A stretch of 64,000 bases of DNA from Aestuariivirga sp. (GCF_047600585.1 NZ_JASGKP010000001.1:3213823-3277822), one strand, 5' to 3'. Counted from the stretch's first letter, positions 1-9,153 are shown. The notes: generated by a model not told the origin, from the letters alone. Program-made: numbers and translations.

Positions 1-41
1 CTCGGGATTTCGCATTATTCAATCGGCAATGGAAAACACGG

Positions 42-461
42 ATGGCAAATCAAAGTATGCTTATGGCTGTCGCCGCGGCCTGTTCGGGTGACTTGGAGAA
101 TGATGGATCTTCGACCACTTCAGCAGATGTTAAGAGACGTGAGCTGGAGAAGGAGACAGGTCCGGTCACGGTACAGCAGCTGAAGGAACGTTATCCGGCT
201 GCTGCCGCAGCACTTATCGCTGAAGGAAAGGCAGCTGCCCGCATGGAGCAAGAGATATTGGAGCGCCTGCTGAAAGAGAACCAATCAGCCGGCGCCGCGC
301 AGGTGGCTGCGCCAGCCGTCTGTTGGAAAACTGGTGTCGACAAGCACAAGGAAGAGTGGGCGACCGATGCCAATCTGCGGAAGGAATTTTCCAGCGAGGC
401 TGCCTATCTCTGCTTCCGTAAGATGCAAGATGAAGGAAGAGTAAGGATTCTCAGCCGTTAA
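42..461 (+). CDS. Hypothetical protein resembling the C-terminal scaffolding (Nu3-like) region of lambdoid head protease/scaffold proteins
   Basis: 139-aa ORF followed by a terminator. Segments TVQQLKERYPAAAAALIAEG and EEWATDANLRKEFSSEAAYLCFRKMQDEGRVRIL recall phage S49/scaffold C-termini (from memory, not searched). Confidence 0.45.
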   Translation: MANQSMLMAVAAACSGDLENDGSSTTSADVKRRELEKETGPVTVQQLKERYPAAAAALIAEGKAAARMEQEILERLLKENQSAGAAQVAAPAVCWKTGVDKHKEEWATDANLRKEFSSEAAYLCFRKMQDEGRVRILSR

Positions 462-488
462 TCGGGCAATGTTTCCTGCCGTTGCTGC

Positions 489-523
489 AGCCTCTTCCCG
501 ATAAAGGGGAGAGGCTTTCTTTT
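489..523 (+). terminator. Rho-independent terminator after ORF 42-461
   Basis: AGCCTCTTCCC-gataaa-GGGGAGAGGCT followed by TTCTTTT. Confidence 0.7.
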
Positions 524-543
524 GCGAGTGTTGGTGGTTCCCA

Positions 544-632
544 GGGGCATAGGTTCTTCCTGCCAAATCCGCCTTCGCGGGTAGTTCGGACTATGCTCCC
601 GCTCCAGTTCGAGCGTTATCTGAGAGCCTAAA
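544..632 (+). repeat. Conserved 89-bp motif, copy 1 (putative phage packaging/cos-like site)
   Basis: GGGGCATAGGTTCTTCC-N15-CGCGGGTAGTTCGGAC-N8-CGCTCCAGT-N17-GCCTAAA; identical blocks and spacing recur at 8522-8610. Confidence 0.7.
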
Positions 633-664
633 CATGTGATGCGGTTTGGCGTCGCAGATGGAAT

Positions 665-1915
665 TCAATTCCCCTCATCTCTTGGGCGCATAAGCCTATG
701 AAAACTGCGTTGAGGTCGCAGTTGGAGAATATCGTCTGGCTCGATACCGGAAGCGCTCCTCCGACGGCTTCCGCGGGGTGTAATCACCTGAAGATCAGGA
801 CTCCTCATGATTGCTGCGCGAATGTCGTCACTGTGAGCGGGGGTCTCCCCGTAAATTACCCGGCGGAAATCGGCAACGCCAATAGTGTCCCCATAGCGAG
901 AGACCAAGCGGGGTATATCATCTGTGAGTTGATCAAGAGCCGATGCCCTGCCGACGTCGTCGAAAAGATACAGCTTTCCTTCTTCTGGCTTTTCATAAGT
1001 CAGCATCTTCAAACCTGATCTACCAAAATGAGCCTGCAAGGAAGCGTTGGCGTGCAGGATATCGTTGTAGACCTCGCGTGCTCTAGGGCTCTGCGCAAAA
1101 TGGAGCAGCCAGTAACTCCATCCTTTGTTCTTGTGCACAGAGAATGGGCTGACATACGGAGCACAACCATGAAAGACTTCAAATACAAGTCTCTCCGCCA
1201 GACCCAACCATAGCTGGTTAGTTAGGGTTGATTCACTCAGTCTCCTAATGTCGAAGTCCGGACCGAGAAAGGCGGTTTGCGCAGCCAGTTTTTTCGCGTC
1301 GCGTTTGTCCAGAAAAGCCAGAAACGAGTCGATCGAGAAGTTGTAGAACATCTCGATGTTCTTGAACGCATCAATGATGTCTCGAATGCTCTCTACCTGC
1401 ACTTGGCTATGGCCGCACTGATCCAGTATGAACAGGACATTTTCGAAGCCGTAGTGTTTAAGGCTGGTAATGAGGTAGGGGCAGATCTCCTCGAACTTTT
1501 TATCGTGGTACTTCACAGTCAGGTCGAGTTGGTCTCTGATTTCCTCCGCCTCAAGCAATAGGGGCGCTAGATTCTCTCGGAGAATTTGAATGGCAACAGA
1601 GTCTGCATCGTTGCAGATCATGAGACATTCGATGTGAAGCTCTGAGAATCCGTTGGCCTTCCTCACCAGATTGAGTGTTCGGGCTGCATTGACCAGCTCT
1701 TCGACAAAAATGAGTGGCGACCCCGGAGTGCCGTCTTTATATCGACCTGCTCCAGAAAATCCTTCGACTATGGCCAGCTTGAATTTCGATTGCCGTGGAT
1801 GTTGGCATCGGATGGAGATGTACTCCCGGAAATACTGCCGGAGGATCGTTAGCTTTGCCTTGGATTCTTCGCCAAGAACGGCGCCTCCGGACCAATCATA
1901 ATCGACCCGGACCAT
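665..1915 (-). CDS. tcmP: Three-Cys-motif partner protein TcmP (SAM-methyltransferase-like fold, C-terminal wHTH-like region)
   Basis: N-terminal SKAKLTILRQYFREY, EGFSGAGRY motif and FILDQCG motif; directly downstream of a DUF5131 gene. Confidence 0.85.
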   Translation of the reverse strand: MVRVDYDWSGGAVLGEESKAKLTILRQYFREYISIRCQHPRQSKFKLAIVEGFSGAGRYKDGTPGSPLIFVEELVNAARTLNLVRKANGFSELHIECLMICNDADSVAIQILRENLAPLLLEAEEIRDQLDLTVKYHDKKFEEICPYLITSLKHYGFENVLFILDQCGHSQVQVESIRDIIDAFKNIEMFYNFSIDSFLAFLDKRDAKKLAAQTAFLGPDFDIRRLSESTLTNQLWLGLAERLVFEVFHGCAPYVSPFSVHKNKGWSYWLLHFAQSPRAREVYNDILHANASLQAHFGRSGLKMLTYEKPEEGKLYLFDDVGRASALDQLTDDIPRLVSRYGDTIGVADFRRVIYGETPAHSDDIRAAIMRSPDLQVITPRGSRRRSASGIEPDDILQLRPQRSFHRLMRPRDEGN

Positions 1916-1924
1916 GGAATTATC

Positions 1925-2701
1925 TCACGGCGCCGCGTGCGACCCGGGCATCTCGTCCCAGGTCCGGCCACGGTATTCTCGTCCGTTTGCTTTCTTCGAT
2001 CGCTTTTTGTTGTCCTTGCCCCAAGTTCCCCACTGTTTGAAGAAGAATGCAGTGCCAGCATCAGTGCACTGGTTATAAATCTCATCGATCCACTCTTCGC
2101 GGATCGGACGCGCCTGGCGGCCACTCTCTCCACCGACTATTGCCCAGTGAATGCCGTGCAGATCGATTTCGCCGACCGGCCCGATCAGTGGCTCAAACGA
2201 GATGAAGCGAATTTTGGCCCTGACGTGCCGGATCGCATCGGCGCGGTCGACATGTTCTGCATTTTCAATGCTCGTGCCGAGCCATACATTTTCCAGTGGC
2301 GGGCCGAGACGATTGACAACCTCGGCCATTCGTTCAGGGCGCTTCGTCAAAATTTGGTAGTGGTGACGCGGTGTGCGCTCCATCACGTCCCACACTTCTC
2401 GTATGAATGCCTCCGAAACTCGTTCGTGGAACAGATCGCTCATGGAGTTCACAAAGATTTTGCGAGGCTTTTTCCATCTGTCTGGGATGCCGAGCGCACC
2501 GCGATCTTCCCTGACCACCCCATTCCAAACCGCTCTATTGCCGCTCCTGCGGACAAGGCCGCGATACTTGGGTATCCCCATGGCCTGCAGACGCTTTGCC
2601 ATCTCCATGGCGTAGCAGTTTGTGCAGCCAGCACTGACTATCGAGCAGCCAGCGACTGGGTTCCAAGTGGAGTCGGTCCACTCAATCTGTGTCTCGGCCA
2701 T
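1925..2701 (-). CDS. DUF5131 / phage Gp37-Gp68 family three-Cys (radical-SAM-like) protein
   Basis: IEWTDSTWNPVAGCSIVSAGCTNCYA, IFVNSMSDLFH, QILTKRPER, FISFEPL, WAIVGGESG, FFFKQWG, LRGRTWDEMP-like end: all hallmark motifs. Confidence 0.93.
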   Translation of the reverse strand: MAETQIEWTDSTWNPVAGCSIVSAGCTNCYAMEMAKRLQAMGIPKYRGLVRRSGNRAVWNGVVREDRGALGIPDRWKKPRKIFVNSMSDLFHERVSEAFIREVWDVMERTPRHHYQILTKRPERMAEVVNRLGPPLENVWLGTSIENAEHVDRADAIRHVRAKIRFISFEPLIGPVGEIDLHGIHWAIVGGESGRQARPIREEWIDEIYNQCTDAGTAFFFKQWGTWGKDNKKRSKKANGREYRGRTWDEMPGSHAAP

Positions 2702-2764
2702 GGCGCCTCCTACGTTGAGAATATCATCTTCTGGAGTTTTCGCCAGCTATTGGAGGTTTCCGGT

Positions 2765-2784
2765 TTCATGGAAAATTCCATGAA
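2765..2784. promoter_or_regulatory. Palindromic operator in the divergent DUF5131/HTH intergenic region
   Basis: Perfect 9-bp inverted repeat TTCATGGAA-AA-TTCCATGAA. Confidence 0.55.
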
Positions 2785-2867
2785 TAATCCAATTTGCTCC
2801 GGCGACCTCTGTGCGGCCATCTGGGGCGAGCGATCCCCAAGGAACGCGCTCCACAGAGGAAGCCTAA

Positions 2868-3095
2868 ATGCATACAAAGATCACTCCCTTTCCGGCGCCT
2901 TCGCTACTGAACGAGCACCAGGCAGCCGAGGTTCTCAATCTCACTGTCTCCTCCCTCCGCAACTGGCGTCTCCGTGGGGACGGACCTACCTTCATCAAGG
3001 CCGGCAGGTTGGTCCGCTATCGCCCGTCCGATCTGGACGACTGGGTCAACAGGCGCGCGTTTGCCAGCACCTCCCAGATGGGACGGTCCGCGTGA
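2868..3095 (+). CDS. AlpA/excisionase-like helix-turn-helix protein
   Basis: LLNEHQAAEVLNLTVSSLRNWRLRGDGPTFIKAGRLVRYRPSDLDDW is a typical MerR-like/AlpA HTH. Confidence 0.9.
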   Translation: MHTKITPFPAPSLLNEHQAAEVLNLTVSSLRNWRLRGDGPTFIKAGRLVRYRPSDLDDWVNRRAFASTSQMGRSA

Positions 3096-3544
3096 GGACG
3101 CCAGCCAAACGAGAGAGACACGGCCCCGGCGCGCGGGACATCCTGAGCGCCGAATTTCGCAAGCAGCAGCGTCCTCGCCTTCGGGTTCAGGAGATGCGTC
3201 AGCTCATCGAGCTTGGCGCCACCGCTCGGGCTTTCCACCGCGCCTTGGTCACCGGTTTCTGTACGCCTGGTGCATTCGATCTGCGGAAGGCCATTCGGCC
3301 GTTGTCCCGTCCGAATTTCGGAGAAGGGCCTGTCCTGACGTTCCAGAGCTACCTCGACAGACGAGCGTGCGAGCTCGTGCCGAGAGATATGGACACGGAG
3401 AACCTTGCCCTCCGGGTCGCCTTCGGAGAGCCGCTGCTTCTGCAGGAACAGCTGCATCTCATTCGGGCGGCCGGGATTGCTGAGCAGTCCAGGATGGCGG
3501 CAGCGAGGATATCTCCGGCCAAGGTCAAACGGAGGCCGAAATGA
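3092..3544 (+). CDS. Hypothetical satellite protein
   Basis: GTG start overlapping the HTH stop (GTGA); stop overlaps the next ATG (ATGA). It is the C-terminal part of track ORF 1937-3544. Confidence 0.6.
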   Translation: MRTPAKRERHGPGARDILSAEFRKQQRPRLRVQEMRQLIELGATARAFHRALVTGFCTPGAFDLRKAIRPLSRPNFGEGPVLTFQSYLDRRACELVPRDMDTENLALRVAFGEPLLLQEQLHLIRAAGIAEQSRMAAARISPAKVKRRPK

Positions 3545-4359
3545 AGCTCATCGCAAAAGCGAAGCAGGCTCCCGAAGGAGCCTGCCCGGCGTCTGAGGCG
3601 CCTCGAATCCACTCGGCAGGCTTTACTGCCCGGATCAGCTGCAGTGCCAAGACACGCGAGTTTCCTGGTGCCTGCCGGCGTTCTTGCCAGAAACGCAATC
3701 GACCGCGGATTTGGGCACGGCCGACGTCTTCGAAACTGCAGTGTGCGTGGATGCGTGTCGAGAGAGATTTATGCATGCAGAACAGCAACCATAAAGCGAA
3801 ACAGGCCCCCGAAGGAGCCTGCCCGATGCATGGTTTCCGTTTCACTTCCTCGAGCAGCTGGGTGCCCCATGAACGTGAAATCGAACCGGCGGTGGTTCGC
3901 CGTTCCGTGCCATCTCGCACTTGGCTGCACCTTGTGCGGCGAAACCGGTCCTTGGAGAAGCCGGGATTCGCGACGGCAAATATGCAGGCCATTTGGCAGA
4001 GTGTCGAGACTTCTAGGCCCGTGGACAGCAGACAGCAGGCCCTCGGAAGGGCCCGCTTGACGATGGGGGCAAATCAGAACATGTTGTCAGCGGGCTTAGA
4101 AACCCTGACAACGATAGAGCTGGAAGCGGTTGGCGCCGCATTCGAGCTGACGCGAGCAACCTTCACGGTTGCCGCAGCGAAGCGCCTTGGCGGGCGCTCC
4201 ACACCCGTCCTTTATGGCCGGGGGAGAGCGCTATGTCCAGAGCTCACGCTTAAAACCGCTCTGCCTGTCTCGTTGCAGGTTTCTAACCCCCGGCTTCCAG
4301 GTCCGCCACCTGGAGCAACGGGCCTTAGAAAGCCCTTCGACAACGAGGACTCCCCATGA
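3541..4359 (+). CDS. Uncertain hypothetical ORF; internal start at 3775 possible, and the 3' part overlaps a regulatory RNA region
   Basis: ATGA overlaps at both ends; contains the duplicated peptide KAKQAPEGACP. The 3' third coincides with a promoter-like site and structured RNA, so the coding extent is doubtful. Confidence 0.35.
   Translation: MKLIAKAKQAPEGACPASEAPRIHSAGFTARISCSAKTREFPGACRRSCQKRNRPRIWARPTSSKLQCAWMRVERDLCMQNSNHKAKQAPEGACPMHGFRFTSSSSWVPHEREIEPAVVRRSVPSRTWLHLVRRNRSLEKPGFATANMQAIWQSVETSRPVDSRQQALGRARLTMGANQNMLSAGLETLTTIELEAVGAAFELTRATFTVAAAKRLGGRSTPVLYGRGRALCPELTLKTALPVSLQVSNPRLPGPPPGATGLRKPFDNEDSP
3556..3825 (+). repeat. Two 33-nt direct repeats (3556-3588, 3793-3825), each containing a hairpin
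   Basis: AAAGCGAAGCAGGCTCCCGAAGGAGCCTGCCCG vs AAAGCGAAACAGGCCCCCGAAGGAGCCTGCCCG (31/33 identical); stem CAGGCTCC-CGAA-GGAGCCTG. Confidence 0.85.
4212..4313 (+). ncRNA. C4/CI-like antisense RNA (phage P1 C4 / P4 CI type immunity switch)
   Basis: Starts TTATGGCCGGGG. GCCGGGGG(4217-4224) pairs with CCCCCGGC(4287-4294), AGAGCG with CGCTCT, and there is a terminal hairpin CCAGGT-CCGCC-ACCTGG. The segment TCGTTG-CA-GGTTTCTAA (4270-4286) is complementary to sites at 4096-4114 and 4325-4346. Confidence 0.65.
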
Positions 4360-4685
4360 ATATCTCCCGCCGCGACTTTGTCGCCGGCTGCGGTGCACTC
4401 ACCGTAGCTTCCGTTCCCGCCCATGCAGACGAACCGGAAATCTCCGAATTCGTCACGCGTGTCGAATCCTGCGGTATGACGATTTTTGCGACCACGCTCG
4501 AAGGAGTGCCGGCGCTTCATCTCCACATTGATCTCACGGTCGAGTCGCCAGATTTGGAGGTCGACCGCGATGAAGTCTTCGAGCAGCTGGCCGCATGGAA
4601 GAAGCTCTCCGACTGGCAAAAGCGTCGACAGAGGATCATCCACTATCTCGTCACCACCGGCCGCAGTTATGGGGTGACGGTATGA
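4356..4685 (+). CDS. Small hypothetical protein with a twin-arginine-like signal peptide
   Basis: RBS GAGGA at 4345-4349; N-terminus MNISRRDFVAGCGALTVASVPAHA (SRRxF, hydrophobic stretch, AxA). Confidence 0.7.
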   Translation: MNISRRDFVAGCGALTVASVPAHADEPEISEFVTRVESCGMTIFATTLEGVPALHLHIDLTVESPDLEVDRDEVFEQLAAWKKLSDWQKRRQRIIHYLVTTGRSYGVTV

Positions 4686-4861
4686 AGCGCCTCACCCGTC
4701 GACGGACCTGGGCGAGCTTCCAGCAGAGAGAGAGGCGCGGACTTGTCCGCGCCTTCAGTCTCCGCCTCCCCCGAAAATTTCAAGCGAACAGGTGTTATTC
4801 AACTGCATCTCATCTCCCGGTGCACCGTCCTGCTCCTCACGATCCGCGGGGTGCAAAATGA
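4682..4861 (+). CDS. Small basic hypothetical protein
   Basis: ATGA overlaps with both neighbours (MKRLTRRRTW...). Confidence 0.5.
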   Translation: MKRLTRRRTWASFQQRERRGLVRAFSLRLPRKFQANRCYSTASHLPVHRPAPHDPRGAK

Positions 4862-5169
4862 AGCCGTCGCGCAAAATCGATTTCGCCCGGATCAATGCCC
4901 GAGCGCTCGCAAGTGCAGACTCCATCCTCGTCCGATGGCTGCCAGACGGCCGCCGCGAAGGCACTGAATGGGTAGCCCTGAACCCGCGGCGCAGCGACAA
5001 GCGCCGGGGATCCTTCAAGGTCAACCTCCACACCGGGAAGTGGGGTGACTTCGCTGCCGGCGCGAGTGGTGGTGATCTCGTCTCGCTCGCGGCCTACCTC
5101 TTCGACCTCGGCCAAGGAGAGGCGGCCCTCAAGGTGTCGGACATGTTGGGAGTGGACCCACATGTCTGA
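4858..5169 (+). CDS. Primase N-terminal (zinc-binding-domain-like) protein, stand-alone
   Basis: WLPDGRREGTEWVALNPRRSDKRRGSFKVNLHTGKWGDFAAGASGGDLVSLAAYL is typical of satellite/phage primase N-domains. Confidence 0.75.
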   Translation: MKPSRKIDFARINARALASADSILVRWLPDGRREGTEWVALNPRRSDKRRGSFKVNLHTGKWGDFAAGASGGDLVSLAAYLFDLGQGEAALKVSDMLGVDPHV

Positions 5170-7342
5170 CCCCTTCGCTCCGATCCATACCGCCGATGAC
5201 CCTCCGCGTTCTAAGGCGAAGCAGGATACCTGGGAGGTCATCTCACCAGTTCCTGACGAAGCTCCCGCTCCTCCCGCTGAGCACTACTCACGAGGCAAGC
5301 CGTCCCGCAGCTGGCAGTACCTGGATGCCACAGGGAAGCTCCTCGGCTTCGTGTGGCGCTTCGACACTGAGGAAGGTGAAAAGGAGTTCCTGCCGCTCAC
5401 CTACTGCCGCAAGGCAGACGGATCGGGCGCCAGCTGGAGGTTCAAGTCCTGGACCGCGCCGCGCCCGCTCTACGGGCTCAGGAAGCTCGCTGTCTCTCCG
5501 TTCCCGGCGGTTCTAGTCTGTGAGGGTGAAAAAGCTGCAGACGCGGCCCAGAGGCTCCTGCCGGACCTTGTAACGGTCACCAGCCCGGGAGGGTCAAAGG
5601 CGGCCACAAAGGCAGACTGGAGCTCGCTGGCCGGGCGGGACGTGGCCATCTGGCCAGATAACGATGCTGCCGGCAAAGACTATGCGGAACAAGTTGCCCG
5701 CTTCGCCCGAAAGGCCAAGGCCATTTCGGTGGTGGTAATCACGCCGCCGGCCGGCGTTGCACAAGGTTGGGATGCGGCCGACGCGGAAGCGGAGGGTTTC
5801 AGCCCGGACCACCTGAAGGCACTGATCGATGGCGCCAAGGTTCTCAATCGCGAGTCTTCAGACGCCGCCGATGAAAAGCCCGAAGATGACGAGCCCAAGC
5901 GGCGGAGGCCCCGCCAGTCGACCGAGACTATTGATCTCCTCGACAGCCTTGATGTCGAGTTTTGGATTGATCAGGACGGTGAAGCCTTCGCAAGTGTTCC
6001 CGTGAATGGCCACTTCGAGAACAGGTCACTCAGATCGAAGGAGTTCAAGAGATGGCTCGCTGGCCAGCAATACCGCGCCACCGGTGGCGCCATCAGCTCA
6101 CAGGTGCTAGAGGACAGCCTTCGCGTGCTGGAAGCGCGAGCCTCGATCGATGGCCAGCAGTACGACACCTGGCGCCGTGTCGGGGAACACAGCGGGAAGA
6201 TCTACATCGACCTTGGCGATGCCTCCTGGCGAGCCGTCGAAGTGACGTCGCTCGGATGGAAGGTCATCAGCAATCCGCCCTGCAAGTTCATCCGCGGTAG
6301 CGCAATCCGCGCACTGCCGGAGCCCCTTATGGGCGGCTCAGTGGATGCTCTGAGGGGGTTCTTCAATTTTGAGAGTGACGATGAGTTCCAGCTGTTGGTC
6401 ATGTGGACCGTTCAGGCGCTCCGATCAAAAGGACCCTACCCGGTTCTTTGCATCAATGGCGAGCAAGGCTCTGGCAAAAGCATCCTGACGCAGGTGCTGC
6501 GATCGCTGACCGATCCGAACGGCGCTCCACTACGCGCTGCGCCCGGCGACGATCGGGACCTCTTTGTGATGGCAAACAACGCATGGGTCCTTGCCCTCGA
6601 CAATCTCTCCAGCATTTCCGAATGGCTGAGCGACGCACTGTGCCGGGTTTCAACTGGTGGCGGCTTTTCCACCCGTACCCTGCACAGCGACAAGGACGAG
6701 ACATTCTTCTATCTGCAGAGGCCGATCATCCTCAATGGCATTCCCTCACTCACGAACCGGCCGGATCTAGCAGATCGATCGGTGTCCCTCTTCCTCAAGG
6801 CAATGCCGGCCGGCAGACGGAGAGCGGAAGAAGAGTTCTGGAAGGACTTTGACAAGGCCGCGCCCGAGATCCTCGGGGCTCTGCTTGACGGTGTCTCGGC
6901 CGGCCTTCGCAATGTCGACAAGGTCAAGATTGCGGAAGTTCCCCGCATGGCAGATTTTACAAAGTGGATGTTGGCAACCGAGCCTGGCCTTGGTTTCAAG
7001 GAGGGATCCACCTTCGCAGCCTACCAAGAGAACCGTCGAGAGATCTCCGAGACGACTTATGAGGCCGATCCAGTCGCGGTGGCGATCGCCAACCTTGCCA
7101 AGCACAAGGGCAGTTTGGATTGTGGTGTCTCCGAGCTACTGACTATGCTCAACGATGCCTCTCCCGAAGCGCTACGCAAGTCCAGGAGCTGGCCCGCGAG
7201 CCCAACCGGTCTCGGCTCGAAGATCCGGCGAGTCGCTCAAGTCCTCCGCGATCAAGGATTCCTGATCGATTTCGGTCACTCCGGGAAGCGCTTCGTGCGG
7301 ATCATTGCGCCGGCTGAATTGGAGCTCCAGGCTGGGAGGTAG
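5162..7342 (+). CDS. Toprim primase - P-loop helicase fusion (satellite replication protein)
   Basis: Toprim VLVCEGEKAADA...IWPDNDAAG; Walker A NGEQGSGKS; ALDNLS; IILNGI; RPDLADRS. Start ATG 5162 overlaps the upstream ORF. Confidence 0.88.
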   Translation: MSDPFAPIHTADDPPRSKAKQDTWEVISPVPDEAPAPPAEHYSRGKPSRSWQYLDATGKLLGFVWRFDTEEGEKEFLPLTYCRKADGSGASWRFKSWTAPRPLYGLRKLAVSPFPAVLVCEGEKAADAAQRLLPDLVTVTSPGGSKAATKADWSSLAGRDVAIWPDNDAAGKDYAEQVARFARKAKAISVVVITPPAGVAQGWDAADAEAEGFSPDHLKALIDGAKVLNRESSDAADEKPEDDEPKRRRPRQSTETIDLLDSLDVEFWIDQDGEAFASVPVNGHFENRSLRSKEFKRWLAGQQYRATGGAISSQVLEDSLRVLEARASIDGQQYDTWRRVGEHSGKIYIDLGDASWRAVEVTSLGWKVISNPPCKFIRGSAIRALPEPLMGGSVDALRGFFNFESDDEFQLLVMWTVQALRSKGPYPVLCINGEQGSGKSILTQVLRSLTDPNGAPLRAAPGDDRDLFVMANNAWVLALDNLSSISEWLSDALCRVSTGGGFSTRTLHSDKDETFFYLQRPIILNGIPSLTNRPDLADRSVSLFLKAMPAGRRRAEEEFWKDFDKAAPEILGALLDGVSAGLRNVDKVKIAEVPRMADFTKWMLATEPGLGFKEGSTFAAYQENRREISETTYEADPVAVAIANLAKHKGSLDCGVSELLTMLNDASPEALRKSRSWPASPTGLGSKIRRVAQVLRDQGFLIDFGHSGKRFVRIIAPAELELQAGR

Positions 7343-7420
7343 GGGAAAATTAATCTTTTGGTAAGATTCTGTTCCAGCTTGGGGAATTCTCATCGCATTT
7401 CCCTGGAACGGTGCGTGGGG

Positions 7421-7477
7421 TTGACGAGTTCAACATGTATCACTAAGGTCTGTTTTTAATCAACAAAAACAGACCTT
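7421..7477 (+). promoter_or_regulatory. Sigma70-like promoter overlapped by a 13-bp inverted-repeat operator
   Basis: TTGACG-N17-TAAGGT (7421-7449); AAGGTCTGTTTTT-AATCAAC-AAAAACAGACCTT (7445-7477). Confidence 0.65.
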
Positions 7478-7496
7478 TATTTCAGGGAAGCGCGTC

Positions 7497-7691
7497 ATGA
7501 CGAATCTGAAGACGAATGATCAGCTGCTGAGGAAAATGAGGTCAGCTGCATCGAAAAGCCTCACCGCCGAAGAGCTCCGCCAACAGAAAATCTCTTTCAT
7601 CATGGCCAATTTTGATGAAGAGAGTTCGGTTACTCGCGATTACGTGGGTGCCGTCCTGGACAAGCAGGATGGCCGCAAGTCGGCAGCGTAA
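7497..7691 (+). CDS. Small protein upstream of Fic (putative antitoxin/partner)
   Basis: 64 aa, RBS AGGGAAG; its stop TAA directly abuts the GTG start of the Fic gene. Confidence 0.65.
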   Translation: MTNLKTNDQLLRKMRSAASKSLTAEELRQQKISFIMANFDEESSVTRDYVGAVLDKQDGRKSAA

Positions 7692-8417
7692 GTGATAATC
7701 TTCGAGATCACCGGCAGGGAGGACAGTCCCGCGTACCGGGATCTCGAAGTATCTAATGGCGAGAGGCAATTCGACTTCCTCCGATCAACGGTGGCAGCCT
7801 CACTCGCGTTGAAGCGCCCTTTTATTTCCCAGCATCTTTTGAAGGCCTTGAATTTCCATGCGATCGCCTGTTTGCACACCAGTGCAGGCGAGTTCCGTCC
7901 CTGCGAGGTGACAGTCGGCGCGTACAGGCCTCCGTCTCCTCACCGCGTCCAGGCTCAGATGGATGACTTCATCAATCAGGTCAACAGAGCCTGGGAGACG
8001 GCAGATCCTGTTTTCCTCGCGTGCTATGTACTGTGGCGTCTCAACTACATTCACCCGTTCATCAATGGCAATGGGCGGACCGCCCGCGCCGCCTGTCTGT
8101 TCGTGCTTTGTGTGAAGGCCGGTGGCTGGTTGTCCGGTGAACCTATCCTACCAGATCTTCTGAAGCGAGAACGAGCCAACTATGTCGCCGCCCTTCAAGT
8201 CGCTGACCGAACTTTCGAAGCTACGGGAGATGCCGATCTCAGGCTCCTACATGGCCTCGTCGCCAGTCTGCTTTATGAGCAGCTCAACGGCGTAAGGGAT
8301 GAGCCTCAAGTCGATGAGCCTGCTGCCGCAGCTCCTGTCGTGGAGAATAACATCGATCCGGAAGAGATCCGCCCGCGGCGGGAACCCGACGACAATGACG
8401 CTGCTGTCCAAGAATAA
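7692..8417 (+). CDS. Fic/Fido domain protein
   Basis: Motif HPFINGNGRTAR; acidic C-terminal tail. Confidence 0.9.
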   Translation: MIIFEITGREDSPAYRDLEVSNGERQFDFLRSTVAASLALKRPFISQHLLKALNFHAIACLHTSAGEFRPCEVTVGAYRPPSPHRVQAQMDDFINQVNRAWETADPVFLACYVLWRLNYIHPFINGNGRTARAACLFVLCVKAGGWLSGEPILPDLLKRERANYVAALQVADRTFEATGDADLRLLHGLVASLLYEQLNGVRDEPQVDEPAAAAPVVENNIDPEEIRPRREPDDNDAAVQE

Positions 8418-8521
8418 GACTACTGCCTTTACCCCGCTCCCCCGCGCCTCTCTCTGCGCCAAGCGGCGGTCACTGCAAGCGCAAGAGCTGGTAAGGCGAC
8501 TTGAGCCACGCTTTGACCGGG

Positions 8522-8610
8522 GGGGCATAGGTTCTTCCGGGCCACTTGCGGTACGCGGGTAGTTCGGACCGTGTACACGCTCCAGTCTCAGGGAATGGCC
8601 TCAGCCTAAA
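8522..8610 (+). repeat. Conserved 89-bp motif, copy 2 (putative packaging/cos-like site)
   Basis: Same four blocks and identical spacer lengths as 544-632, with unrelated spacer sequences; followed by further CCTAAA/CCTA repeats. Confidence 0.7.
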
Positions 8611-8764
8611 GTCCTAAAGAGCCTACTGCAGGTTGCCGAATACCCATTGTTTGCATGGCTCATGCGGTGGCTGCAGGGCGATCGGTTCGGCCGTTCCAGG
8701 ATCTCGAGTGCGAAGGATTCCGCTTTTTTTAGTGGTCGGCGCCAGGCCGTGCCCCGAGCCAATT

Positions 8765-8960
8765 TGGACACCTTGCCGGCGCCGTCGCTGCACTCCGCGA
8801 AAAACTCAGCGCGGGGTTTCGGGCCGCAGTTGGACACCTGTGGGCACCTGTGGACACTTTGCGAAATTCAAAAGATGCCCATTTTTTGATGGTTTCGGAC
8901 ACCTTGGACGCCTTGGACACCTTCTTTTTTTTAATAGGATAAATATTGAAAGAGAAAGAG
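8765..8960 (+). repeat. Iteron-like array (TGGACACCT consensus, 7 copies) plus AT-rich tract: putative replication origin
   Basis: One copy at 8765; three in tandem at 8831/8841/8851 (10-nt period); three at 8896/8905/8914 (9-nt period); followed by TCTTTTTTTTAATAGGATAAATATTGAAAG. Confidence 0.7.
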
Positions 8961-9076
8961 TACGAGAGTGTTCGATTACTCTGTAGGCTGCTTCCCCGAT
9001 GCTTCTCCGTTTAAGCGGGCGCGAGAACACCGAAGATGGAACAGCCTCTATATTATTGAATTTGAAAGGGAAAAGA

Positions 9077-9153
9077 TGGTACAGCCTCCCAGGCTTGAAC
9101 TGGGGACCCCCAGATCCACAATCTGGTGCTCTAACCAACTGAGCTAAGGCTGC
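9077..9153 (-). tRNA. tRNA-His (GTG), lacking encoded G-1, with A73
   Basis: GCAGCCTTAGCTCAGTTGGTTAGAGCACCAGATTGTGGATCTGGGGGTCCCCAGTTCAAGCCTGGGAGGCTGTACCA; anticodon loop TT-GTG-GA; CCA encoded. Confidence 0.97.

Follow-up and report, generated by a model that had tools for sequence, protein, structure and literature searches.

A DUF5131-TcmP gene pair in a low-GC island of Aestuariivirga sp. is a new member of a catalogued candidate defense system

The 64,000 nucleotide stretch of Aestuariivirga sp. DNA analyzed here (GCF_047600585.1 NZ_JASGKP010000001.1:3213823-3277822, called "the window" below) carries at positions 665 to 2,701 two adjacent genes, one for a DUF5131 family protein with a three-cysteine motif and one for TcmP, its "three-Cys-motif partner". 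The gene pair is real, intact and correctly identified, and the locus is a new member of a catalogued candidate system without experimental work; it is not itself a discovery. What is new here are the linkage counts, the rearranged adjacency of the two genes in viral genomes, a natural fusion, the contrast between solo and paired DUF5131 genes, the invariant cysteines, the TcmP motifs and the neighborhoods in which the pair is found. Gene identity and integrity, linkage, mobility, neighborhoods, folds, conserved motifs and the natural fusion are established by the observations described below. Our tentative interpretation of them is that the pair is a two-subunit S-adenosylmethionine (SAM)-dependent nucleic-acid-modifying enzyme that serves in conflicts involving phages and mobile elements, probably in defense.

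An earlier note on this DNA had called the pair an "undescribed system", which it is not: PDC-M30 and PDC-M41 in PADLOC-DB v2 are the DUF5131-TcmP pair (Payne et al., bioRxiv 10.1101/2024.01.29.577857), and both families have names in NCBIfam and SFLD. A PADLOC scan, as that note had proposed, gave matches of both component models of PDC-M30 and PDC-M41 to the adjacent window genes (DUF5131 matches PDC-M41B at 1.8e-101 and PDC-M30B at 5.7e-96, and TcmP matches PDC-M30A at 8.9e-22 and PDC-M41A at 1e-4). The PDC systems are 145 untested candidates that were collected by "guilt-by-embedding" within BREX, DISARM and Type I restriction-modification (R-M) loci (bioRxiv 10.1101/2024.01.29.577857). 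In SFLD/RadicalSAM.org DUF5131 is the radical-SAM subgroup Megacluster-5-2, with spore photoproduct lyase next to it as 5-3 (PMC9477430); the Sinorhizobium meliloti TcmP (SMa2243) has been listed beside the Hna defense gene and is co-regulated with it (PMC12445080); and 68.8% of the 32 Pseudomonas aeruginosa carriers of PDC-M30 were resistant, a strain-level correlation (PMC10855318). The window locus has the same two families in the same adjacency as PDC-M30 and PDC-M41, but its TcmP is only a moderate match to the A-component models and shares ~50% identity with its nearest relatives. It does not differ at the family level from the TIGR04474/PF07505 "three-Cys-motif" pair, since it scores above both cutoffs and has both the Cx6Cx2C motif and the adjacency; within TIGR04474, the window TcmP is a long form with a winged helix-turn-helix (wHTH) region and a derived DQCGH sequence at motif IV.

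Do the two proteins work together? The open reading frame (ORF) coordinates in the window (Table 1) bear out the earlier description of a two-gene operon with a nine nucleotide gap that lies antisense to the island core (the HTH_17, primase/helicase-like and Fic genes, all on the plus strand). An AGGAGG Shine-Dalgarno sequence at 2706-2711 (minus strand) lies 5 nucleotides ahead of the DUF5131 ATG, and there is none for the tcmP start in the nine nucleotide spacer, so the two genes are likely to be translationally coupled within one operon. In the divergent intergenic region on the other side of DUF5131 neither a sigma-70-like site nor any promoter was identified. Linkage elsewhere was determined as follows: In the 80 best TcmP loci among GTDB contigs (one genome per species), DUF5131 is directly upstream on the same strand in 79, with gaps of 19-68 nucleotides; one of these 79 DUF5131 copies is degraded and one is divergent, and the 80th locus ends at a contig edge. 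The 534 neighbor genes within 5 kb of these loci scatter over 405 clusters, so there is no conserved third gene. In the best 80 of at least 581 IMG/VR viral contigs with DUF5131, TcmP is immediately adjacent in 41, and it occurs there in three arrangements: DUF5131 first, TcmP first, or the two genes convergent and overlapping at their 3' ends. TIGR04474 recognizes the short, convergently encoded TcmPs of Synechococcus phage Ssp-JY39 (8e-64) and Gordonia phage BaxterFox (2.5e-51). The two proteins are also naturally fused in a 558 amino acid protein (P0324) with DUF5131 at residues 5-238 and TcmP at 268-552 (1e-55). Because adjacency survives rearrangement and the fusion exists, there is strong evidence from gene order that DUF5131 and TcmP act together, and the earlier statement that the two families are recurrent neighbors is clearly right.

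The idea that phages lack TcmP was tried and is wrong: a profile made from close TcmP homologues missed the phage TcmPs (E ~1), and tblastn and a pattern scan with the window TcmP found almost none of them; NCBIfam and an iterated search found them. One further viral ORF (L181, 5992-8136), which is cut off at its contig end, fuses DUF5131 to a superfamily 2 (SF2) helicase with a weak DpdE-like match (1.4e-5). At a few loci the long TcmP is followed by a second TcmP, which is short and convergent: this is so on S. meliloti pSymA and on Agrobacterium pAt (299-308 amino acids) and in 2 of the 80 GTDB loci. Some systems therefore have one DUF5131 with two different partners; the window locus has no second short TcmP.

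The window DUF5131 protein matches PF07505 over its full length (7.8e-102, 340.3 bits against a Pfam gathering score of 28.9; residues 3-252 on model positions 1-243) and falls in PHROG 2045. Its residues 77-223 also match TIGR04471, "radical SAM mobile pair protein A" (NCBIfam, 4.9e-25), and the TIGR04471 match in the fusion protein P0324 spans model positions 11-196, the cysteine region included. The CxxxxxxCxxCYA motif that the earlier note had pointed out is present as C19-x6-C26-x2-C29-Y-A; C19, C26 and C29 are 100% conserved in 90 viral DUF5131 proteins (44 paired and 46 solo) and are invariant across 72 close homologues. The AlphaFold2 (AF2) model of the protein (predicted local distance difference test value, pLDDT, of 78) has alternating strands and helices in a barrel-like domain, with the cysteine loop placed between the first strand and the first helix, and the strand ends are rich in invariant acidic and basic residues. 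Its best Foldseek matches in the PDB are NifB (7bi7, E 3.6e-3, probability 0.99) and spore photoproduct lyase (probability ~0.9), with weak E-values and TM-scores, and lower-ranked matches are generic TIM barrels, including endonuclease IV (probability 0.5-0.7). Because of its SFLD subgroup, the TIGR04471 homology and the NifB and spore photoproduct lyase fold matches, we read DUF5131 as radical-SAM-like, as the earlier note did; it is predicted to be an iron-sulfur (Fe-S) enzyme of the radical-SAM type with a TIM-barrel-like fold. Searches of PDB sequences with both window proteins and with both profiles found no solved structure related by sequence. The Lys/Arg-rich C-terminal tail of DUF5131 has pLDDT values below 50 at residues 225-239 and 250-258, and many tail residues are nonetheless invariant. 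Conservation of G240, R241, G245 and P252 reaches 90% or more in paired DUF5131 proteins, and solo copies mostly lack these residues, which suggests that the paired-specific tail is a candidate TcmP-docking or nucleic-acid-binding element. DUF5131 proteins are a very large family that forms 37,461 clusters at 50% identity (E <= 1e-3), and they are present in at least 581 viral contigs of IMG/VR and in 178 isolated phages, spread over bacteria and the phages of bacteria and haloarchaea.

TcmP matches TIGR04474 (three-Cys-motif partner) at 1.3e-59 over residues 16-290 (202.3 bits against a cutoff of 53), a family assignment that is as unambiguous as that of DUF5131, and no sequence-level match to any methyltransferase family was found for it in Pfam or the PDB. 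Its AF2 model (pLDDT 82.7) has an N-terminal helix, a class-I SAM-methyltransferase fold and a C-terminal winged helix, and it matches class-I SAM methyltransferases in both the PDB (E ~5e-5, probability 1.0) and BFVD with low TM-scores; guanine-N2 cap methyltransferases are among these matches (TGS1, 3egi, and a viral cap enzyme at rank 2). The EGFSGAG sequence (residues 51-57) that the earlier note likened to a SAM-binding motif is present within this methyltransferase fold. Its G52, F53, G55 and G57 are invariant in an alignment of homologues, and in 44 viral TcmPs the corresponding D, F, G and G of the family motif are 97, 93, 100 and 93% conserved, respectively. An acidic residue ends strand 2 family-wide, at N102-D103 in the window TcmP (the end of strand 94-102), and K21 and Y28 of the N-terminal helix are both 100% conserved in the 44 viral TcmPs and the window clade. 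At the motif-IV position D165 and G168 are 100 and 81% conserved among the viral TcmPs, and the family sequence DP[YFW]G resembles motif IV of amino-methyltransferases. The window TcmP has DQCGH there, in which neither the catalytic motif IV (D/N/S)PP(Y/F/W) nor an aromatic equivalent was found; judged from the alignment, the DQCGH of the window clade is a derived variant of DP[YFW]G. The C-terminal wHTH-like region, which was also noticed earlier, matches Pfam GMT-wHTH at E 4.8e-5 (24.2 bits, below the gathering score of 27) and in the AF2 model has three helices (320-339, 347-357, 362-371) ahead of two strands (375-378, 396-399). It is confined to long-form TcmPs, 17 of the 44 viral copies. 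Over 76 genomic pairs mean identity is 64% for TcmP and 77% for DUF5131, so that TcmP diverges ~1.6 times faster, and the two sets of distances correlate (rho 0.45). The window TcmP is an outlier, with ~50% identity to all relatives except one at 57%.

DUF5131 is found without TcmP in 39 of the 80 best viral loci and in seven isolated phages that were inspected (TChen, PPF1, PhiCh1, vB_RY3, prophiGD53-3, Nsp-JY10 and RcapNL). These solo proteins are longer than paired ones (median 333 against 260 amino acids) and are encoded in early or replication modules of both lytic and temperate phages. The catalytic core does not differ between the two groups, with the three cysteines and ~50 further residues reaching 90% conservation or more in each. 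The commonest recognizable neighbors of the solo genes are DNA methylases (9 of 150 proteins at 35 loci, an uncontrolled lead), namely four C5, two N6_N4, two D12 and one MT-A70, and next after these come DnaB, RusA and the sliding clamp.

The pair itself is cargo of many kinds of mobile elements and is also found in defense islands. (Genes in these neighborhoods were called by codon log-likelihood.) The closest relative of the window TcmP (57% identity) is in the early lytic operon of a Mu-like prophage, co-oriented with it; its gene lies in the GemA-Mor interval and immediately follows an MT-A70 methylase gene. In Pseudomonas the pair adjoins the portal and terminase genes at one end of a P2-like prophage, in phage BaxterFox (KU963263.1) it is between the integrase and the immunity repressor, and in Sphingobium it is in a region like an integrative and conjugative element. 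It is also carried by 62 plasmids, of which 29 are conjugative; P. aeruginosa megaplasmids, in which an integrase gene is directly upstream, are among the carriers. In S. meliloti the pair adjoins Hna and two VapBC pairs, elsewhere it adjoins HamA-HamB (Hachiman) and follows an integrase and a PIN toxin, and on Agrobacterium pAt it is between a CHAT protein and Hachiman. A PADLOC scan of 145 neighbor-cluster representatives (E <= 1e-10) matched Type II, IIG and IV R-M, DrmMI, PglX, AbiE, DarG, BilD, SIR2-Argonaute, PycC and IetA, and Pfam adds HipA, PIN, SIR2_2 and resolvases. Pairs with equal tblastn identity and bit score to the window proteins (L060-L069) are present in Sphingomonas, Sphingobium, Phenylobacterium, Prosthecomicrobium and several metagenome-assembled genomes; since identical pairs are found in these four genera, very recent transfer between genera is indicated. 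In the BaxterFox locus (L003, 3728-5724) the deposited genes 39-41 are annotated on the opposite strand, over a DUF5131 gene whose product is 52% identical to that of the window, and the "hypothetical" gene 42 is TcmP (TIGR04474, 2.5e-51).

From the above we infer Fe-S and SAM chemistry, a nucleic-acid substrate, formation of a complex and a role in defense. DUF5131 would be the conserved catalytic core, whose Cx6Cx2C site should hold a [4Fe-4S] cluster, and TcmP would be the faster-evolving partner that selects and presents the target, most probably a DNA base. TcmP may transfer a group from SAM, with the radical step performed by DUF5131, and the enzyme pair would travel as self-contained accessory cargo of mobile elements. 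DNA is the more likely substrate because TcmP has a wHTH, because DUF5131 resembles spore photoproduct lyase and is fused to a helicase in one viral ORF, and because methylases and R-M systems are found nearby. The module in the window would most likely work as an anti-phage or anti-invader system, and defense is somewhat better supported for the paired form because of its placement in defense slots and its fast-evolving TcmP. A bolder version, to which we give distinctly less credence, is that DUF5131 and TcmP make a hitherto unknown base modification by combining a base-flipping, methyltransferase-type subunit with a non-canonical radical-SAM subunit; they would then be a new and very widespread family of modification-based conflict systems in which paired forms act in immunity and solo forms on the phage's own DNA.

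Comparison with characterized systems gives partial likenesses. Like spore photoproduct lyase and RlmN/Cfr, DUF5131 has a three-cysteine site close to its N-terminus; it may also have a partial TIM barrel and probably acts, as they do, on a flipped-out base. Its cysteine spacing differs from theirs, and in the paired form it requires a separate methyltransferase-fold partner. The Dpd (7-deazaguanine) and Dnd/Ssp (phosphorothioate) systems are mobile multi-enzyme DNA modification systems that serve host immunity or phage anti-restriction, and their pathways include Fe-S or radical-SAM steps. In contrast to these, DUF5131-TcmP has only two genes and no recognizable restriction module, and no components homologous to theirs were detected except the weak DpdE-like match (1.4e-5) in the one helicase fusion. 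TcmP shares with amino-methyltransferases (N6-adenine, N4-cytosine and N2-guanine enzymes; RsmD, Trm1, TGS1) the class-I fold, DxFxGxG, the strand-2 acidic residue and DP[YFW]G, but DQCGH replaces the aromatic motif in the window TcmP clade and the N-terminal helix with K21 and Y28 is not seen in the RsmD, Trm1 and TGS1 classes.

How well does a defensive two-subunit modifying enzyme stand against other explanations? A number of points weigh against it. Membership in PDC-M30/PDC-M41 says nothing on mechanism, because the PDC candidates are called untested by their own authors, and in the literature we found annotations only and no functional study of DUF5131, TcmP or the pair, as the earlier note had said in calling both families without demonstrated function. 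DUF5131 does not have the canonical CX3CX2C spacing and does not match PF04055 (Pfam gave PF07505 alone), the structural matches are weak (best Foldseek E 3.6e-3 for DUF5131, and ~5e-5 at low TM-score for TcmP), and methyl transfer by the window TcmP is doubtful because its DQCGH is without the proline and the aromatic residue. The neighborhood counts are raw and without a matched background control. No effector that attacks non-self is recognizable, so a module that only modifies does not by itself explain immunity, and the Mu-like early-operon placement and the solo copies in replication modules fit self-protection at least as well. Self-protective hypermodification, in which the DNA of the carrier element and its host is shielded from restriction and the pair serves counter-defense or addiction and not defense, is in fact a serious rival, though we think it rather improbable. 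It would account for the closest TcmP homologue directly following an MT-A70 gene, for solo DUF5131 genes in early and replication modules of lytic and temperate phages, and for methylases being the commonest identifiable neighbors of these (above), and the BREX, DISARM and Type I R-M loci in which pairs are embedded are also a site of accessory methylases. It agrees less well with the frequent presence of the pair in lysogeny-expressed or defense slots (the P2-like prophage end, the BaxterFox integrase-repressor interval, and beside Hachiman and Hna) or with the fast divergence of TcmP, which is more typical of immune recognition, and the methylase association is uncontrolled and covers only about one quarter of the solo loci. 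The defense role proposed in the earlier note thus stands as one of two comparably supported roles, since self-protective modification fits the Mu-like operon and the solo copies equally. Defense and self-protection could both hold for the same chemistry, as they do with 7-deazaguanine systems.

The remaining alternatives concern the substrate and the chemistry, and we consider all of them improbable. The substrate might be tRNA or rRNA, with an RlmN/Cfr-, MiaB- or Trm1-like enzyme retuning translation during infection. DP[YFW]G resembles motifs of the guanine-N2 RNA methyltransferases Trm1 (DPFG) and TGS1 (SPPWG), and the radical-SAM nucleic-acid enzymes characterized so far act mostly on RNA; in addition, TGS1 and a viral cap guanine-N2 methyltransferase are among the TcmP fold matches, annotators of Mycobacterium abscessus prophages called DUF5131 an "RNA methyltransferase", and short-form TcmPs are without the wHTH. 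The window TcmP has a wHTH, however, the fold matches of TcmP are those of generic class-I methyltransferases, and the DUF5131-helicase fusion, the fold likeness to spore photoproduct lyase and a genomic company of DNA methylases and R-M systems all point to DNA, which makes an RNA substrate unlikely. About equally unlikely is that DUF5131 is not a radical-SAM protein and is instead a DNA repair enzyme or nuclease built on a TIM barrel, in which the Fe-S (or zinc) site is structural or senses DNA and for which TcmP is the DNA-binding adaptor. The first three cluster-loop ligands of Endo III/MutY also have Cx6Cx2C spacing, and the endonuclease IV TIM barrels among the fold matches (probability 0.5-0.7), the missing PF04055 match and CX3CX2C, and the many invariant acidic and basic residues at strand ends would all suit such an enzyme. 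On the other hand SFLD puts DUF5131 in the radical-SAM superfamily, TIGR04471 matches at 1e-21 to 1e-25 with the cysteine region included, the best fold matches, NifB and spore photoproduct lyase, are radical-SAM proteins, and only three cysteines are conserved family-wide, so that, as in radical-SAM enzymes, one iron would stay open. Least probable of all is an R-M-like or toxin-antidote pair whose members are independently regulated and in which TcmP methylates self DNA and so shields it from DUF5131, which attacks DNA that is unmodified, or in which these roles are exchanged. Such a pair would explain why a methyltransferase-like protein is joined with a second DNA-directed enzyme, why the genes are embedded among R-M systems, and why many viral copies are convergent with overlapping 3' ends, as is common in R-M and addiction modules. 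But DUF5131 is often solo in phages and TcmP almost never, and if DUF5131 were toxic, one would hardly expect the "restriction" subunit to stand alone at about half of the viral loci. DUF5131 is also the more conserved partner, a nuclease fold was not recognized, the window TcmP is without canonical catalytic motif IV, and the natural fusion suits a cooperative enzyme, though fused R-M enzymes exist; it is because of the frequent solo DUF5131 genes and the fusion that we rank this explanation low.

A new DNA or RNA modification, or a novel form of immunity, if true of the pair, would mean new enzyme chemistry in phage-host conflict and possibly a tool for site-specific modification. DUF5131 is a large family with a dedicated partner, neither of the two has a demonstrated activity, and they make a good experimental target, for which the invariant cysteine triad, TcmP motifs I and IV, the paired-specific tail, the natural fusion and the contrast between solo and paired forms are handles.

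The DUF5131-tcmP pair in the window is part of an ~8-kb module (Table 1). Its GC content is 51.1% in tcmP, 56.9% in DUF5131 and 57.9% between the 65 nucleotide repeats, compared with 64.7% for positions 10-64 kb, which agrees with the earlier observation that tcmP is AT-richer than the host, and the codon log-likelihoods of the island genes are much below those of flanking genes. Because of its low GC content and low codon log-likelihood the module adjoining tRNA-His is foreign DNA. No sequencing runs holding the locus were found.

Table 1. Coordinates of features at and around the DUF5131-tcmP locus; positions are those of the window unless a locus number (L) is given
Feature	Coordinates	Strand	Basis and remarks
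DUF5131 gene	1925..2701	(-)	ORF exactly at these positions; 258 amino acids; first gene in operon
Three-Cys motif C19-x6-C26-x2-C29, then Y30-A31	2615..2647	(-)	Translation; presumed [4Fe-4S] site
Lys/Arg-rich C-terminal tail of DUF5131, residues 225-258	1928..2029	(-)	Conserved, predicted disordered
DUF5131-tcmP spacer	1916..1924	(-)	9 nucleotides, GATAATTCC, from DUF5131 stop codon to tcmP start codon
tcmP gene	665..1915	(-)	ORF exactly at these positions; 416 amino acids
TcmP motif I, E51-G-F-S-G-A-G57	1745..1765	(-)	Family D-x-F-x-G-x-G; predicted SAM-binding loop, of the kind in nucleic-acid methyltransferases
TcmP motif-IV position, D165-Q-C-G-H169, after strand 4	1409..1423	(-)	Family D-P-[Y/F/W]-G
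TcmP C-terminal winged-helix region, residues 308-400	716..994	(-)	Pfam GMT-wHTH, AF2
Divergent intergenic region, DUF5131 operon / AlpA-type HTH gene	2702..2867		Holds AGGAGG
AlpA/excisionase-type HTH_17 regulator	2868..3095	(+)	PF12728 9.6e-10, PHROG 66
Primase/helicase-like replicase	5045..7342	(+)	PHROG primase/helicase families 1e-16 to 1e-21; weak Toprim match
Fic-domain protein	7692..8417	(+)	PF02661 4.4e-18; PADLOC SoFic 2.5e-16, PDC-S04
65 nucleotide imperfect direct repeat	544-608 and 8522-8586	(+)	77% identity, spacing 7978; brackets ~8-kb low-GC module
tRNA-His	9077-9153	(-)	Adjoins low-GC island
Second short TcmP (other loci)	L085-L091 11266-12192; L193 7267-8166	(-)	Beside Hna or Hachiman helicases

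Is the island a phage satellite, as the earlier note had it in calling the pair "satellite cargo"? An AlpA-type regulator and a primase/replicase, two of the marks of P4-like or PICI-like satellites, are both present. No integrase was recognized among the scanned ORFs of positions 1-9000 (the island may extend to the left of the window), and no capsid-redirecting or packaging genes (Sid/Psu/Delta, TerS, Cpm) were found among the island proteins with Pfam, PHROGs and NCBIfam. Thus mobile-element cargo among defense genes is the part of that description that holds, and the "satellite" label is a guess; the data show a small integrative replicative island. In the collections searched, Methylobacterium plasmids of 18-20 kb encode the best plasmid relatives of its replicase (40-49% identity), and a metagenome scan for relatives of the primase gave one distant locus.

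Several smaller features of the island are as follows: The primase/helicase-like gene probably has its true start at MSDPF..., and a 125 amino acid ORF at 4792-5169 (+) ends ~10 nucleotides beyond that start; this ORF has no family match and probably encodes a small, translationally coupled, primase-associated protein. The Fic protein also matches NCBIfam "mobile mystery protein B" (1.2e-11), and a 64 amino acid ORF (7497-7691) directly precedes its gene; together they resemble a Fic toxin with its partner or a SoFic-like defense gene. No repeat of the tRNA-His end was found, the only such repeats being the 65 nucleotide pair, which does not derive from the tRNA-His 3' end and could mark the ends of the element or be a regulatory or packaging element; Rfam gave no match that explains these or other island repeats. 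Between the HTH gene and the replicase gene there are two copies (3556-3588 and 3793-3825, 94% identity, 237 nucleotides apart) of a 33 nucleotide GC-rich palindrome, GCAGGCTCC-CGAA-GGAGCCTGC, which are hairpin- or terminator-like. Positions 4216-4303 (+) match sRNA-Xcc1 in Rfam with 31.8 bits (E 0.025), which stays below the gathering score of 53. Finally, just ahead of tRNA-His, at 8800-8930, a cluster of GGACACC(T)-like short repeats is found together with an A/T-rich stretch, and these may be iterons or recombinase-binding sites.

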